Source: Pseudomonadota bacterium (GTDB lineage: Bacteria > Pseudomonadota > Gammaproteobacteria > UBA9214). From it: a stretch of 64,000 bases of DNA. Made by a program: the position numbers and the translations under genes. The stretch is taken from NCBI GenBank assembly GCA_039714155.1, contig JBDLJX010000001.1, forward strand, positions 65,257-129,256, read 5' to 3'. Below are positions 1 to 19,522 of the stretch, in pieces. Position 1 is the stretch's first letter; each line of letters opens with the position of its first letter. Below the pieces are notes generated by a model. It saw nothing but the letters and a program-made list of their open reading frames with translations, was not told the origin of the DNA and ran no database searches.

Positions 1-138
1 GGCAATGACCTGATCACGGCACTGGTGAAGATGTACAAGGAAAATGCCAGCACCCTGACACCCGATCCGCTGTATTCTGCCTTCCATGATTCACACCCGC
101 CAGCGCCGGTGCGAATCGCCCATATATCCGGTAACATA
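1..138 (+). CDS. Partial CDS (C-terminus only): M48/Ste24-like zinc metallopeptidase
   Basis: Frame 1 reads ...LVKMYKENASTLTPDPLYSAFHDSHPPAPVRIAHISGNI*. This matches the conserved Ste24/M48 C-terminal pattern (..NLSxLTPDPLYSAxHYSHPP..ERI..). The start lies outside the window. Confidence 0.45.
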
Positions 139-161
139 TAATCATGCTTACGGAGCCAGCT

Positions 162-445: not shown

Positions 446-796
446 ATGGCCAACAGCGACCTGCTCAACAAACACTGCCAACCCTGCGAGGCCGGCGACA
501 CACCATTAGCCGATGATCGGGTATCTGAACTATTAACCAACCTGCACAGTGACTGGCATATCGATGAGGCCGGCAAGGAAATCAGCCGCACCTTCAAGTT
601 CAAGAACTACTACCAGACCATGGCCTTCGTCAATGCGCTGGCCTGGATCGCACACGGTGAAGACCACCACCCGGATATCGAGGTCGGCTATAACCGCTGC
701 CACGTGCGCTACAGTACCCATGCCATCGGCGGTCTGTCCGGCAACGACTTCATCTGCGCAGCCAAAATCGATGCCCTGCTGCCCGAGCCGACGTAA
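446..796 (+). CDS. phhB: Pterin-4-alpha-carbinolamine dehydratase (PCD/PhhB family)
   Basis: 116 aa with the diagnostic (E)DHHPD..V motif of PCD/DCoH. It starts 5 nt after the cytochrome c stop, consistent with translational coupling. Confidence 0.8.
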   Translation: MANSDLLNKHCQPCEAGDTPLADDRVSELLTNLHSDWHIDEAGKEISRTFKFKNYYQTMAFVNALAWIAHGEDHHPDIEVGYNRCHVRYSTHAIGGLSGNDFICAAKIDALLPEPT

Positions 797-818: not shown

Positions 819-1751
819 ATGCCCGCTCCCAGCAACAACGACAACCGAACCACTATACAAGACACATCCACCGGCCTGGTCATTGTTAATTACGGCAAGT
901 CCCTGCTGGTCGAGAACAGTGATGGCAGGCTGCATCGCTGCGTGGCACGCCGTAACCTCGACACCATTGTCAGTGGTGACTGCGTCAACTGGGAAGCCAC
1001 TGGCGATGGCGAGGGTGTCATCACCTCGATTGAACCCCGTCACAGCATACTGACACGTACCGATATTGCCGACCGGTCACGGCCGCTGGCCGCCAACATC
1101 GACCAGATCATTATTGTTGCCGCCCCCGAACCGGCACTCGATGAGTTCCTGATCGACAAATACACCATCGCCGCCGAACTGACCGGCATGATACCCTGCA
1201 TCGTTATCAACAAGGCAGACCTGCTTGATACGGACATGCGCGGTGAACTTGAAACCCGTCTTGATGACTATGCCGCCATCGGCTACCGGGTAATTTTTAC
1301 CAGCGCGTTGCAAGGCGATGGCCTGGAGAGCCTCTCGGACCAGCTGCAAGACAAGACCAGCATCCTGGTCGGCCAGTCCGGGACCGGCAAATCATCACTG
1401 ATCAAGCGCCTGCTGCCGGATCTGGATATCGCCATCGGCAAACTGTCGGATGCCTCCGGCCAGGGCCGACACACCACCACGACCACCACGCTGTACCACC
1501 TGCCGCACGGTGGCGATCTGATCGATTCGCCGGGCGTGCGCGACTTCCGTCTCGGCCGGGTGGAAGCCGGCGCGCTGGCAAGCGGTTTCCGGGAATTCCA
1601 TTCCTTGCATGGCCAGTGCAAATTCCACAACTGCCGCCACCTGTCGGAACCCGAATGTGCCATTATCGAGGCTGCCGGGAACGGCAAGATCAGTGCACGA
1701 CGCCTGGAGAGCTACCATCGACTGTTGGCAACAACAGGCAGCTCGCCTTGA
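819..1751 (+). CDS. rsgA: Ribosome small-subunit-dependent GTPase A
   Basis: 310 aa with a circularly permuted GTPase (NKxDL..., GQSGTGKSSL) and a C-terminal zinc finger C-x-H-x-C. The overall alignment resembles E. coli YjeQ. Confidence 0.9.
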   Translation: MPAPSNNDNRTTIQDTSTGLVIVNYGKSLLVENSDGRLHRCVARRNLDTIVSGDCVNWEATGDGEGVITSIEPRHSILTRTDIADRSRPLAANIDQIIIVAAPEPALDEFLIDKYTIAAELTGMIPCIVINKADLLDTDMRGELETRLDDYAAIGYRVIFTSALQGDGLESLSDQLQDKTSILVGQSGTGKSSLIKRLLPDLDIAIGKLSDASGQGRHTTTTTTLYHLPHGGDLIDSPGVRDFRLGRVEAGALASGFREFHSLHGQCKFHNCRHLSEPECAIIEAAGNGKISARRLESYHRLLATTGSSP

Positions 1752-1834
1752 CAGAAATCAATGGATAATCCGGCCTTCCGGGTTATGCTATATATCAACA
1801 GGACAACGTAACCGGCAGATCAAGGAGACAGAAT

Positions 1835-2878
1835 TTGCAAAGGCACAGCAACATTTTCGGCATACTGCTTGTAATAACGCTTATCGCCGGTATACCTGCT
1901 TTGGCATGGTCGGGTCCTGCCTCATTACCGGAGACCATCATGTCGGGACCGGGTGTTACCGAGTGGGATATCAGCAATGCCGGTGGCACCTCCAGCGGGG
2001 ACGCCTTCATCGGCAGCTGTGATGGTTCGGTCGGACTGGCCATCGACGATGCCACCAGTGCCAATGGTTCCGGTGACGCCTACGACACGGCCTGGCAGGT
2101 GTTCATCGACAGCCAGATCTTCGAGGCGCCCGATCCGGTCGGTATTACCGGTAACGTCATGACCGCCGGGCCGGCAATGGTCGGTGTGGCCAACCTGCCG
2201 GTAACGGTTGAATACCTGTTCTCCGATACCGTGCAGGCAGCACGTATCCGCGTGCTGTTCGAGAACACCTCGGGCAACGACATCAACATCACGGTCGAGG
2301 TGCCGGTAAATTTCGGCTCCGATGCTGCAACGACACTGGAAGCCACCTCATCAGGCGACCTTGTCTTTGGTATCGATGACCGCTGGATCGTAACCTCCGA
2401 CGGCGCACCAGCGGGTGACGCGGTCAACACAACGGTGATCTTCGGGCCGGACAACCCTGTCGAGCTACCGACCGCAGTCACCAACACCGTGTGTGACAGC
2501 TCCGGTACCGAGGGTGCCGGCATGACCTTCGAGATCAAGATACCGGCGAACTCGATTCGTGCGCTGATGTTTTTTGCCGGCCTTGGCAGTATCGAAGGCA
2601 TTACCAACACGATTATTGGCGCCATTAACAGTGCCGCCATGTTTGATGACACGGACAACATCGACCCCAGCCTGATCGGTGACCTGGACCCCACCGAACT
2701 CGACCAGATCCTGAACTGGCGATTTATCCGGGAAGGGAAAGTCAAGGTTTCCAGCGGTGGCGGCGGCGGTGGCTGCAGCCTGCAGGCTGCAGCCGGACCC
2801 GATCCGTTGCTGCCAGCGCTACTGGCCGTGTTGTCACTGCTGTTTATTTACCGGTACAGCGGCAGACGACAGCGCTGA
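1835..2878 (+). CDS. Secreted hypothetical protein with a GlyGly-CTERM-like C-terminal sorting signal
   Basis: TTG start with an AAGGAG 7 nt upstream. N-terminal signal peptide (ILLVITLIAGIPALAWSG). Asp/Thr/Gly-rich body. The C-terminus is SSGGGGGGCSLQAAAGPDPLLPALLAVLSLLFIYRYSGRRQR* (Gly run, TM helix, basic cluster). Confidence 0.55.
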   Translation: MQRHSNIFGILLVITLIAGIPALAWSGPASLPETIMSGPGVTEWDISNAGGTSSGDAFIGSCDGSVGLAIDDATSANGSGDAYDTAWQVFIDSQIFEAPDPVGITGNVMTAGPAMVGVANLPVTVEYLFSDTVQAARIRVLFENTSGNDINITVEVPVNFGSDAATTLEATSSGDLVFGIDDRWIVTSDGAPAGDAVNTTVIFGPDNPVELPTAVTNTVCDSSGTEGAGMTFEIKIPANSIRALMFFAGLGSIEGITNTIIGAINSAAMFDDTDNIDPSLIGDLDPTELDQILNWRFIREGKVKVSSGGGGGGCSLQAAAGPDPLLPALLAVLSLLFIYRYSGRRQR

Positions 2879-2904: not shown

Positions 2905-2976
2905 GTAGGAGCGAATTCATTCGCGATGTGTTTGTTGTATTTCACTTGCTGATCGCGACTGAAGTCGCTCCTACGG
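2905..2976. repeat. REP family D inverted pair (copy 1)
   Basis: GTAGGAGCGAATTCATTCGCGAT (2905-2927) and ATCGCGACTGAAGTCGCTCCTAC (2952-2974) are near-perfect inverted partners. They sit between the convergent 3' ends of the GlyGly-CTERM-like gene and the HIT gene. Confidence 0.65.
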
Positions 2977-7917: not shown

Positions 7918-8592
7918 TCAGGGAAGCCCCCGAGTCTTTATTTCGACCGTCCCACCGGTCAGGTTGTTCCACCTCTCGCACAGTGGTAGTCGCCTGTTCC
8001 TGCCACTGAAACCCTTCTGACTGTTATCTTGCCGGTTGCATAAGCTGTTTCCGGAGATCCAGATCCCCCACCCCAATACCAGACCACACAGAAATCCCGC
8101 GGCATGTACCGTCGGCACGCTTGGCCAGGCAGTCTGGGTCAGGAGTGCCTGACCGGCATTGATCTCAACAATAATCTTCACGGCCGCACCCACACCGGTG
8201 AGCAGAATCAGTGGATGCCGAAGATCGCGCCACAGCTGCATCAGGCCCACGATCAGCAGGCTGTTCAGGATGCCCGACAACCCACAGTAGTAACGCAGTG
8301 CGGGATCACCCCACCACAGCCAGGCATCGACGCCGACGCTGCCGATCAACAGGGCCAATGGCAGGCGCCACTGCAGCCGTGCCTCGAACAATGCCCCGAG
8401 CAACAGTAGTGCGGTAATGTCCCAGATTGCATGCGCCAGATCGCTGTGCACCCAATGCCCGGTGATCAGCCGCCATAGCTCGCCCCGGGAAATTGCAGCG
8501 CGGTCGAACACCCAGGCCTCAGGTGCTGCACCAAGGCACAGGAAAGCAGACAGCGCCACCGTGCCAAGTAAAAGAGTACGCCATGGCAGCAT
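7918..8592 (-). CDS. Rhomboid-family intramembrane serine protease with rhombosortase features
   Basis: Contains WRLITGHWVH (TM2), a GLSG catalytic-serine motif and a HAAGF catalytic-histidine motif across about six predicted TMs. The start was chosen at the internal ATG at 8592, which has a GGAG 11 nt upstream. The ORF track extends to 8706 and would overlap the upstream gene by 73 nt. It is adjacent to a GlyGly-CTERM protein gene. Confidence 0.75.
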   Translation of the reverse strand: MLPWRTLLLGTVALSAFLCLGAAPEAWVFDRAAISRGELWRLITGHWVHSDLAHAIWDITALLLLGALFEARLQWRLPLALLIGSVGVDAWLWWGDPALRYYCGLSGILNSLLIVGLMQLWRDLRHPLILLTGVGAAVKIIVEINAGQALLTQTAWPSVPTVHAAGFLCGLVLGWGIWISGNSLCNRQDNSQKGFSGRNRRLPLCERWNNLTGGTVEIKTRGLP

Positions 8593-8633
8593 GATGCCGC
8601 CATGGTGTTCTCCAGGTTTAGAAGATGCGTCCA

Positions 8634-17263: not shown

Positions 17264-18895
17264 ATGACCCCGCAGCGTCGATACACTGAATCTATGAGCA
17301 CTGACTTTAACCGAACCGTCTTCCTGACCGGCATCATACTGTTGCTGTCCGGCTGCGCCACGACGAATACCGATACACATCGACAGGAGCCGTCCCGGCC
17401 AGCCGTCTCAACCAGTGCAACGGATCTCGGACACCTTGCTGCACCAGCCAGCGGTCACCCGGCTTCCCGATCTGGCCAGCCTACGAGTGCCACACAATCA
17501 ACGGCACCGGATTTCTGGCAACAGGTACGCAATGATTTCCGCTTGCCGGGCAAGCAACAGGCGGCGGTCAAGCGACGCGCTGCTATCTACGGTAATAACG
17601 CCAGCCAGGTGGAGCGTATTTTCAAACGCGGCGAACCGTACCTCGCCTATATCCAAAATGAAGTACACAAGCGTGGTTTCCCTGCCGAGATTACCCTGCT
17701 ACCCTTTGTCGAAAGCGGCTACGATCCATTTGCCTATTCCCGCGGCAGGGCCGCCGGTCTTTGGCAGTTCATTCCCGGCACCGGCAAGATGTATGGACTC
17801 ACACAGGACTGGTGGTATGACGGCCGCCGTGATGTTATCGCTTCGACACAGGCCGCACTGAATTACCTGGACTGGCTGCAAAAGAAATTTGACGGTGACT
17901 GGCTGCTGGCGCTGGCAGCCTATAATTCCGGCAGCGGCACAGTACGCAAGGCCATCAAAAAGAACCGCAAAACCGGCCGACCGACCGATTTCTGGAACCT
18001 GCGACTGCCGAAAGAAACTGCCGCCTACGTACCGAAACTGCTTGCCATCAGCGAAGTGGTCGCCCGGCCCCGAAACTACGGGGTAACACTGGCAGCCGTT
18101 AACACCACACCGGACTTCACCGTAGTCGTTACCGGCGGTCAACTGGATATCGGGGTTGCGGCCGACCTGGCGAACATGGAGGTGGATGAGCTGTACCAGT
18201 TGAACCCCGCCTTTAACCGCTGGGCGACACATCCCGATGGCCCGCACCAGCTGGTATTACCCGCAGCAAAAGCGACTGTTTTTGAGAACAACCTGGCCAC
18301 CCTGCCCGAGTCACAGCGCATGAAATGGGTGCGCCACAGGATCCGCAACGGCGAAACACTCAGCCACATTGCCCGAAAATATGACACGACGGTCGCGGTG
18401 GTCCGCCAGACCAATCAACTGCACAGTAGCAATATCCGGGCCGGCAAATACCTGCTGGTACCGGTGGCGGCACAGGATGCCTCACGCTATGCCGCCCTTG
18501 ACAGGTTCAGGGGGCGCCGCAAGCCGGCAGGCACGACATCCACCTACAAGGTCAAAAGTGGCGACAGTCTCTGGAACATCGCCCGCAGCAACAGCGTTAC
18601 GGTCAGCCAGATTACCCGCTGGAATGACCTGAACAGCAACACCGTTATCAAGCCGGGGCAGAAACTGGTTATCCGGAAAGGCAGCACGGTCTCAACAGGC
18701 AGCAACCAGTTCCGGACGATCCGCTATACTGTACGCAAGGGCGACTCGCTGTTCCGGATTTCCCGCAAGTTCAACGTCAGCATCGCAGACCTGCGCAGCT
18801 GGAATAACCTGACCGGCAAGAAGTACCTGCAGCCGGGACAACGCCTCAAGGTACACGTAGACGTAACGCAGCAGTCAGTCGCCCGCCGGGGTTGA
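17264..18895 (+). CDS. mltD: Membrane-bound lytic murein transglycosylase D (SLT domain + LysM repeats)
   Basis: 543 aa with a lipoprotein-like signal (LLLSGC). The SLT catalytic region is (..LPFVESGYDPFAYSRGRAAGLWQFIPGTG..LAAYNSGSGTV..). Three C-terminal LysM repeats are present (..YTVRKGDSLFRISRKF..). Confidence 0.85.
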   Translation: MTPQRRYTESMSTDFNRTVFLTGIILLLSGCATTNTDTHRQEPSRPAVSTSATDLGHLAAPASGHPASRSGQPTSATQSTAPDFWQQVRNDFRLPGKQQAAVKRRAAIYGNNASQVERIFKRGEPYLAYIQNEVHKRGFPAEITLLPFVESGYDPFAYSRGRAAGLWQFIPGTGKMYGLTQDWWYDGRRDVIASTQAALNYLDWLQKKFDGDWLLALAAYNSGSGTVRKAIKKNRKTGRPTDFWNLRLPKETAAYVPKLLAISEVVARPRNYGVTLAAVNTTPDFTVVVTGGQLDIGVAADLANMEVDELYQLNPAFNRWATHPDGPHQLVLPAAKATVFENNLATLPESQRMKWVRHRIRNGETLSHIARKYDTTVAVVRQTNQLHSSNIRAGKYLLVPVAAQDASRYAALDRFRGRRKPAGTTSTYKVKSGDSLWNIARSNSVTVSQITRWNDLNSNTVIKPGQKLVIRKGSTVSTGSNQFRTIRYTVRKGDSLFRISRKFNVSIADLRSWNNLTGKKYLQPGQRLKVHVDVTQQSVARRG

Positions 18896-19522
18896 GTCTT
18901 CTTTCAGCCCGCTGATTGTGATATCAGCCTGTTCATGCAACAGCTTTGCCGTCCCTGCACCACAACTGATAATCGACCGCATGGCATCCTGCACGCCAAT
19001 ATCCACGGGGTGCACATACCTGCCTTGCAGATGAAAGATCAAGCCGGATGTTGGATTTGGACCGGTCGGCATGAACACCGTGTAACTGCCGTCCTGATGC
19101 TTGTCGGTAATAAACACCGTCGCCAGCGTGTCGTTGCCATAGACCTGCGCCATCGCCACCGAGGAGAACGGTGATTCCTCGCGATTGCCGAAGATCTGCA
19201 ACACCGTTTCCTTGATCAGCGAGTAACCCGGCGCCAGCTTGAAGATCCGGTTTTCGATAAACCGGAACATGAAACCACCGAACCGGGTCCGCACCAGCAC
19301 ACCAACAAAAAAGCAGGCCGCGATTACCAGTGAAATGGCAACAATATTGGTAATTAATTCATTGTATTGGGAGTAATTCCTGAGAAAGTTCGAGAGCGGC
19401 AAAATCCAGCCGGTAATGAGCTTATAGAGCCACAGTGACACGGTCACCAGGATGGTGACCGGCAGGATAACCACCAGGCCACCGATCAACGACGTCTGGA
19501 TAAAACTGCGCAGCTTTTTCAT
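18875..19522 (-). CDS. DUF502-family membrane protein
   Basis: 215 aa with two N-terminal TMs followed by the conserved DUF502 block ..VFMPTGPNPTSGLIF... Confidence 0.6.
   Translation of the reverse strand: MKKLRSFIQTSLIGGLVVILPVTILVTVSLWLYKLITGWILPLSNFLRNYSQYNELITNIVAISLVIAACFFVGVLVRTRFGGFMFRFIENRIFKLAPGYSLIKETVLQIFGNREESPFSSVAMAQVYGNDTLATVFITDKHQDGSYTVFMPTGPNPTSGLIFHLQGRYVHPVDIGVQDAMRSIISCGAGTAKLLHEQADITISGLKEDSTPAGD

Follow-up and report, generated by a model that had tools for sequence, protein, structure and literature searches.

How is a secreted protein that ends in a C-terminal sorting signal processed, and by which enzyme? This question is raised by the open reading frame at 1835-2878 of a 64,000-nucleotide stretch of contig JBDLJX010000001.1 (assembly GCA_039714155.1, a gammaproteobacterium of the UBA9214 lineage), which we analysed as a whole and refer to as the window. 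The frame, as given in the list of open reading frames, ends in SSGGGGGGCSLQAAAGPDPLLPALLAVLSLLFIYRYSGRRQR directly before the stop codon, exactly as first described. A preliminary description of this DNA proposed a secreted protein with a C-terminal sorting signal, and regarded it as a rhombosortase substrate or, alternatively, as a PEP-CTERM-like variant. Secretion and sorting are supported by a signal peptide and a tripartite tail, but the tail points to a different class of signal. The explanation that we favour, and consider probable, is that the gene encodes a Sec-exported surface protein with a JDVT-CTERM tag, processed by an MrtJ-family protease that is encoded remotely.

The sorting tail and its class

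The three-part layout noticed in the tail, with a motif, a transmembrane (TM) helix and a basic cluster, proved to be real. A run of six glycines (G308-G313) leads into C314, the AlphaFold2 model places a helix at residues 325-342, and the basic end consists of R340 and, further on, R344, R345, Q346 and R347, so that the chain closes with RRQR. Residues 306-320 have a predicted local distance difference test (pLDDT) score below 50, as expected of a disordered Gly-rich linker. The JDVT-CTERM model NF033191 matched the whole protein with 30.5 bits (E = 2.5e-7; curated cut-off 27) and the tail alone with 28.7 bits. The sister class MYXO-CTERM (TIGR03901), outscored by JDVT-CTERM, gave 11.8 bits with the whole protein and 17.9 bits with the tail alone, and thus did not reach its cut-off of 20. 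The models of the two classes that had been proposed, GlyGly-CTERM (TIGR03501) and PEP-CTERM (TIGR02595), were not reported for this protein at E ≤ 10 in an NCBIfam scan, and neither assignment was upheld.

C314 is the only cysteine of the tail. It is invariant both in an alignment of 13 sequences (A2) and in an alignment of 11 homologue tails (A3); in A3 the same holds for the Gly that precedes it and for the Asp and the Pro, and the linker before them varies in length. Because the match has an E value of 2.5e-7 and C314, D323 and P324 are invariant in the 11 homologue tails, we consider the assignment to be beyond chance. In the JDVT-CTERM section of the Haft 2023 preprint (10.1101/2023.06.07.544157), the class is described by a single invariant Cys, a near-invariant Asp-Pro nine residues on, a Leu-rich helix and then an Arg cluster, with usually one such protein per genome. 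The tail studied here agrees with the JDVT-CTERM/MrtJ system (NF033191, NF033192) in passing the curated model, in its invariant Cys, in the DP at nine residues, in its Leu helix and in its Arg end; its host is likewise a gammaproteobacterium, and one such protein was seen in the stretch examined. The GPDP before the helix, which had been taken as a PEP-like sign, is the DP motif of JDVT-CTERM, nine residues after the invariant Cys. A plain TM anchor, suggested earlier for the case that both the GlyGly-CTERM and the PEP-CTERM models failed, is not the best reading either, as the Cys and the DP are conserved and a curated model is matched. Judged by its sequence, the tail is a JDVT-CTERM sorting signal, and not a rhombosortase or exosortase signal.

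Reference client tails encoded beside MrtJ genes have the same build, which can be written G-run-C-x8-DP-[TL]L...-basic. This tail is found in protein P0094, next to the mrtJ gene of locus L030, in the clients of loci L031 and L114, upstream of type II secretion system (T2SS) operons, and in a Vibrio breoganii cassette (L115). A profile search with 42-residue tails returned only four small matches, and P0094, which led to the MrtJ at L030, was among them.

The N-terminal end of the protein depends on which start codon is used. GenBank lists the identical protein from Met36 on as MEN8106439.1, with 312 amino acids and an ATG start at 1940, under the name "JDVT-CTERM domain-containing protein" given by the automated NCBI pipeline. 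The alignment of homologues to our version begins at residue 1 and shows both the signal peptide and an 'A-x-LPQTI' segment to be conserved; the GenBank start loses both, 35 conserved residues in all. Because AAGGAG precedes the TTG at 1835 and the homologue alignment includes the signal peptide, we prefer this TTG over the ATG at 1940; it appears to be the better start model, and the public start codon is likely mis-called. In the signal peptide, a basic n-region is followed by a hydrophobic core of 18 residues and by A-L-A ahead of the likely cleavage site; the AlphaFold2 model has a helix at residues 7-18, and no lipobox Cys was seen on reading the sequence. These features suggest a Sec signal peptide that would be cleaved after A24. 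In its processed form the protein contains 12.1% G, 10.2% A, 8.7% S, 8.4% D and 8.0% T, so that by composition the earlier label 'Asp/Thr/Gly-rich' was roughly right. It is also strongly acidic, with 39 D+E against 9 K+R over residues 25-305.

By analogy with MYXO-CTERM/MrtX, we propose the following pathway. The signal peptide would direct Sec export, and the C-terminal helix would keep the exported protein anchored in the inner membrane, where its RRQR end would face the cytoplasm. Cys314 would be modified, probably lipidated, by an unspecified enzyme. Cleavage just after Cys314 by an MrtJ-family protease, an Rce1-like glutamic intramembrane enzyme, would remove the helix, and the T2SS would move the lipid-anchored protein to the cell surface. 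There, its acidic supersandwich module could possibly bind glycans or another ligand.

The MYXO-CTERM/MrtX system (TIGR03901; Guo, Haft and Wall 2025, PMC11980579) shares with our protein a tripartite tag with a Cys, which is essential in MYXO-CTERM. The proposed routes are alike, from Sec export through Cys lipidation and CPBP cleavage to delivery by the T2SS to the surface. In experiments, MrtX, a close relative of MrtJ, cleaved MYXO-CTERM in a Cys-dependent manner and was required for surface display, and prior Cys lipidation and T2SS transport form the working model of the same paper (PMC11980579). MYXO-CTERM tags often contain GCGC, have a helix free of Pro and charged residues, and occur on dozens of proteins per Myxococcota genome.

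The processing enzyme

Because the tail is of the JDVT-CTERM class, the enzyme predicted for it is the Rce1-like CPBP protease MrtJ. In the JDVT-CTERM section of the Haft preprint (10.1101/2023.06.07.544157), MrtJ is a small glutamic intramembrane protease of this kind, predicted to cut JDVT-CTERM on in silico grounds only.

Several points weigh against processing by an MrtJ encoded at a distance. The NF033191 score exceeds its cut-off by only 3.5 bits; no JDVT-CTERM protein has been studied experimentally, and lipidation is hypothetical even for MYXO-CTERM. According to the same section of the preprint (10.1101/2023.06.07.544157), mrtJ adjoins its client in 16 of 17 described cases. In contrast, a motif scan, a TM scan and tblastn revealed no MrtJ or CPBP gene in the 64-kb window, and MrtJ was not detected either in the flanking DNA, up to 10 kb, of 29 loci that encode a homologous mature domain and of which at least 7 are syntenic orthologues. 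With a verified MrtJ as the tblastn query, the best E value was 5.6 in the window and 2.3 over the 29 family loci. The scan of the window for EExxxR/HxxxN motifs returned LpxB only. Its multi-TM open reading frames are NhaD, a GGDEF protein, RseP, CdsA and a 3-TM protein of about 215 amino acids (18875..19522) that matched no NCBIfam family; T2SS genes were not found in the window, and TM and motif scans of it gave no exosortase-like polytopic frame.

Other loci show where mrtJ can reside. The verified MrtJ is encoded at L030:1610-2101 (gene listed as 1610-2104; NF033192, 114.7 bits; cut-off 75), where the client and mrtJ are followed, in a variant arrangement, by a multihaem cytochrome gene and T2SS genes. 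In L031-L033, whose mrtJ genes form part of complete T2SS operons, the JDVT-CTERM client lies directly upstream of gspC; the client gene of the T2SS operon in L114 occupies the same place. The JDVT-CTERM section of the Haft preprint (10.1101/2023.06.07.544157) does not mention T2SS linkage of mrtJ. Since mrtJ is found inside or beside T2SS operons (L030, L031-L033, L114), it need not adjoin a client; the genes that it accompanies can be those of the secretion machinery instead.

The mrtJ that would serve our protein is, by analogy, probably encoded remotely in the source genome, and the presence of MrtJ anywhere in that genome is the main uncertainty of the explanation we favour. None of the best 120 of 529 MrtJ homologues listed carries an accession of the MEN81... 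series, which is not evidence of absence. As no MrtJ occurs in the flanks of the positional orthologues, non-adjacency of client and mrtJ is a stable property of this clade. The protein thus differs from the described JDVT-CTERM/MrtJ cases in having no mrtJ within 64 kb, and also in its conserved housekeeping position between rsgA and hinT and its Arenicellales-like clade.

Missing proteases can be explained in another way. The protein could be an unprocessed C-terminal anchor that stays in the inner membrane and faces the periplasm, its JDVT-like tail being a relic from before the lineage lost the protease. We consider this unlikely, although mrtJ was found neither in the window nor in the flanks of the syntenic orthologues, and the gene is an isolated insertion between rsgA and hinT. 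The Cys, the DP and the Gly run are strictly kept among orthologues that are only 50-61% identical, which speaks for selection still acting on the recognition motif, and elsewhere the members of the module family are extracellular or displayed at the surface. It is quite improbable, in our estimate, that the client of this clade has been uncoupled from MrtJ for good, in genomes that lack MrtJ, and that its tag is cut by a rhombosortase or by an undescribed protease. If true, this would mean cross-talk between sorting systems that are thought to be strictly cognate.

The enzyme originally put forward for the tail was the rhombosortase, described as the single rhomboid or sortase-like enzyme of the window, 5 kb away. 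This observation is correct: the gene encodes a true rhombosortase by its TIGR03902 score of 112.2 bits, and the window yielded no further gene for a rhomboid, sortase, exosortase or CPBP protein. The rhombosortase would cut our protein near the Gly run and leave a glycerophosphoethanolamine-type anchor, as on GlyGly-CTERM proteins, an idea to which we attach very little probability. The tail does share with the GlyGly-CTERM/rhombosortase system (TIGR03501, TIGR03902) a tripartite layout with a Gly-rich motif before the helix and a basic cluster, the literature assigns surface delivery by the T2SS to both classes, and MrtJ is missing from the window. However, between the Gly run and the helix lie 11 residues (C314 to P324, the conserved DP among them), neither this DP nor the conserved Cys has a function in GlyGly-CTERM signals, and the GlyGly-CTERM model is not matched. 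In addition, the enzyme gene overlaps the gene of a client of its own, a VIT-vWA protein with an SGGGALDAW... tail that ends in ...SGGGALDAWTLLLLLPLVWLTWQRRQPRVRS and has the look of GlyGly-CTERM, although it reaches only 9.3 bits where the cut-off is 15.5. Because the two genes overlap and the VIT-vWA tail is GlyGly-like, enzyme and client form a dedicated pair, in which the tag is divergent. The pair was not found at the corresponding position in L005, L009 and L023, relatives whose loci reach past dnaX or tolC, though our gene is present in them. Its absence from these syntenic relatives, together with the failure of the GlyGly-CTERM model, makes the rhombosortase an unlikely enzyme for this tail.

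Eukaryotic Ste24 and Rce1 both cleave after modified CAAX cysteines. We therefore weighed, as the processing enzyme, an M48 protease of the Ste24 type, a CAAX-protease homologue whose gene comes first in the cluster that contains ours; its final 46 residues are encoded at window positions 1-138. Its counterpart in L001 matches PF16491 ('CAAX prenyl protease N-terminal', 205.8 bits) and PF01435 (123.7 bits), and the M48 gene is syntenic with ours in every orthologous locus that reaches far enough upstream. A linkage test over 80 metagenomic M48 loci (53-78% identity) nevertheless largely refutes this idea, which we regard as highly improbable: the cluster from M48 to rsgA was kept in 50 of them and our gene was present in none. 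Furthermore, L007 and L116, which hold Cys-tailed members in another synteny, have no M48 among their called neighbours.

Processing of a PEP-CTERM-like variant by an exosortase encoded elsewhere in the genome has almost nothing left to recommend it, since the Pro-containing GPDP directly before the helix and a Leptolyngbya paralogue with a VPEP tail (P0086; see below) are outweighed by the unreported TIGR02595, the better score of the JDVT-CTERM model, a tail with no P-E-P and an invariant Cys that is foreign to PEP-CTERM, and a window that contains no exosortase-like polytopic frame.

The mature domain and its module family

What the tail would deliver is a domain that had been described as having no recognisable family, and our searches bear this out: Pfam gave no significant match for the protein, NCBIfam none outside the tail, and a PDB sequence-profile search with the family alignment no significant match. 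Fold prediction and a fold search were carried out as well. AlphaFold2, run on a 36-sequence alignment, returned a confident beta-supersandwich (mean pLDDT 87.9; predicted template modelling score, pTM, 0.80), whose strands span residues 26-250; three short helices follow at 260-291, and the domain ends at the invariant N294-W295. In the PDB, Foldseek matched the model to the N-terminal beta-supersandwich domains of GH94/GH65 phosphorylases and cyclic beta-1,2-glucan synthase, and further to GH63 and GH116 enzymes and the P1 domain of YidC (E from 1.7e-8 to 1e-4, probability 1.0, query TM-score 0.3-0.46, identity about 10%, rmsd 6-9 A). These are fold-level matches only. Our protein has no catalytic domain, and we take its predicted likeness to GH94, GH65 and YidC P1 as a resemblance of fold and not as membership, one that hints at carbohydrate or ligand binding.

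The domain belongs to a large family. A profile search of 1.84 billion cluster representatives gave 2,543 matches at E ≤ 1e-3 and 533 at E ≤ 1e-30, and Pfam holds no model for the family despite about 2,500 cluster representatives. In the JDVT-CTERM and MrtJ literature we did not find it discussed. The module occurs singly, as tandem pairs and in up to 8 copies in proteins of 2,000-6,000 amino acids; these giant multi-module proteins also carry TSP3, PKD, He_PIG and RTX repeats, as is usual for adhesin-like proteins outside the cell. Two-module proteins of about 680 amino acids and multi-module proteins were seen among P0230-P0365. Members are also often encoded by tandem neighbour genes, as in L016, L024, L025 and L026, with two adjacent matches each.

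The tails attached to the module vary. Among 36 sampled members, 13 have a JDVT-CTERM tail, 4 an IPTL-CTERM tail and 1 a VPXXXP-CTERM tail; other forms have GEVED-domain extensions, an unmodelled Cys-containing tail or no tail. The distant paralogue P0086 of Leptolyngbya has a PEP-CTERM-like tail with VPEP, at 15.9 bits against a cut-off of 16. IPTL-CTERM (TIGR04174/PF18203) and PEP-CTERM proteins thus share with ours a homologous module of about 270 residues, at 35-50% identity, and differ from it in carrying tails of other sorting classes. Because tags are swapped on one module, module and tag are independent units. The same swapping of sorting tags on a constant module gives strong circumstantial support to surface display as the shared purpose of the family, and the varied tails, along with the repeats that accompany the module in the giant proteins, suggest that it is extracellular and surface-displayed.

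A further Cys tail, which has no DP, was observed in P0014, P0016-P0018, P0021, P0022, P0026, P0027 and P0031 (L007, L116). It follows the pattern G-x-C-S-L-G-x(8-9)-AGD-LWLLL-...-LGLWR-x-RR. P0014, the one member tested, had no NCBIfam match at E ≤ 0.1, and in a scan of alignment A1 no sorting-domain model fitted the group. Possibly, this tail is a sorting signal that is new to the literature. In L007 and L116, the Cys-tailed paralogues have no protease gene next to them. Matches to 'midcut-by-XrtH' were considered as a clue to the mature domain and rejected: in P0043, the only one inspected, the match (residues 285-334, 14.4 bits) falls in the sorting tail.

Gene order, insertion site and implications

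Orthologous loci share the order M48 protease, small cytochrome c, pterin-4a-carbinolamine dehydratase, rsgA and then our gene, which is convergent with hinT, the first of hinT, recR, ybaB and dnaX on the opposite strand. There are at least 7 positional orthologues among the 29 loci (L001-L006, L009, L010, L011, L013 and L023 are listed). Compared with the window, the neighbouring genes in these loci are 57-93% identical and the gene itself only 50-61%. A profile scan of a genome collection gave 20 loci, all in metagenome-assembled genomes (MAGs), the best being from an Arenicellales MAG with 58% identity.

In 7 of the metagenomic M48 loci described above, hinT directly follows rsgA. Because clusters from M48 to rsgA occur without our gene, 7 of them with this rsgA-hinT junction, the M48 gene is part of the housekeeping backbone and our gene a later, clade-specific insertion between rsgA and hinT. 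Its GC and GC3 values are the same as those of the neighbouring genes, and it therefore does not have the look of a recent acquisition. The rsgA/hinT junction looks like a recurrent insertion site. In L009, an extra gene for a 563-residue protein with no Pfam match (8291-9982) lies between rsgA and the orthologue, and in L001-L004 a sulfate transporter gene (SulP/STAS) is inserted between the orthologue and hinT.

A pair of inverted repeats forms a long hairpin between our gene and hinT. The first arm reads GTAGGAGCGAATTCATTCGCGA, the second is its near-complement, and each arm is partly palindromic. The 22-nt pattern occurs at only these two sites in the window, with 0 expected by chance; the RNA fold of the hairpin has -54.2 kcal/mol (z = -3.1), and a weak terminator-like site lies at 2911-2924. 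The arrangement resembles a REP doublet (REPIN), and the repeats are likely a transcription stop or a REPIN-like element. The coordinates of these features are collected in Table 1.

Table 1. Features of the window and mrtJ genes of reference loci (positions are those of the window unless a locus is named)
Feature	Position	Strand	Remarks
Ste24-type M48 protease, 3' end	1-141	+	Last 46 codons and stop; heads the co-directional cluster
Cytochrome c, 98 aa	144-440	+	Member of the co-directional cluster
Pterin-4a-carbinolamine dehydratase (pcd)	446-796	+	Co-directional cluster
rsgA	819-1751	+	Co-directional cluster
Shine-Dalgarno AAGGAG	1822..1827	+	7 nt 5' of TTG; direct sequence reading
Coding sequence of the tailed protein	1835..2878	+	347 aa and stop, TTG start; complete; from the list of open reading frames
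Predicted Sec signal peptide, residues 1-24	1835..1906	+	MQRHSNIFGILLVITLIAGIPALA, followed by WS; sequence features and conserved position in homologues
Mature domain, residues 25-297, predicted beta-supersandwich	1907..2725	+	AlphaFold2, Foldseek
Flexible linker, residues 298-313, Gly6 run at end	2726..2773	+	Low pLDDT; variable length in homologues
NF033191 JDVT-CTERM match, residues 309-340 of 347	2759..2854	+	30.5 bits
Codon of Cys314, presumed lipidation site	2774..2776	+	Cleavage expected just after; invariant in alignments A2 and A3
D323-P324 'DP' motif	2801..2806	+	+9/+10 from Cys314; invariant in A3
Leu-rich TM helix, residues 325-339	2807..2851	+	LLPALLAVLSLLFIY; AlphaFold2 helix 325-342; hydrophobicity scan
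Cytoplasmic basic cluster RYSGRRQR, residues 340-347	2852..2875	+	Predicted side of membrane; direct sequence reading
Inverted 22-nt repeat pair	2905-2926, 2953-2974		2 mismatches; long hairpin between the tailed-protein gene and hinT
Rhombosortase	7918..8706	-	TIGR03902, 112.2 bits; cut-off 84
VIT + vWA protein, 696 aa	8634..10724	-	3' end overlaps rhombosortase start by 73 nt
mrtJ in T2SS operons	L031 6001-6474; L032; L033		Between gspF and gspG of a complete operon
mrtJ after gspF	L114 7001-7489		Multihaem cytochrome gene between mrtJ and gspG

The class of the tag is already known, GenBank has already named the exact protein after JDVT-CTERM, and the protein is an ordinary member of that system, itself of recent description. 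What is new is minor: the stable uncoupling from mrtJ, an unnamed cargo family with tag swapping, and a likely start-codon error. The assignment of the tail is corrected from the rhombosortase and exosortase systems to a Cys-containing signal for Rce1-like proteases, and the start of MEN8106439.1, which hides the signal peptide, is flagged as a likely mistake of the public record. The gene of a JDVT-CTERM client can lie far from mrtJ, and the T2SS route proposed for them gains support because mrtJ can be embedded in T2SS operons. Finally, a large unnamed family of extracellular modules is added to the list of JDVT-CTERM cargo, and this one module, with at least four sorting tags across lineages, offers material for studying how tags and cargo recombine.

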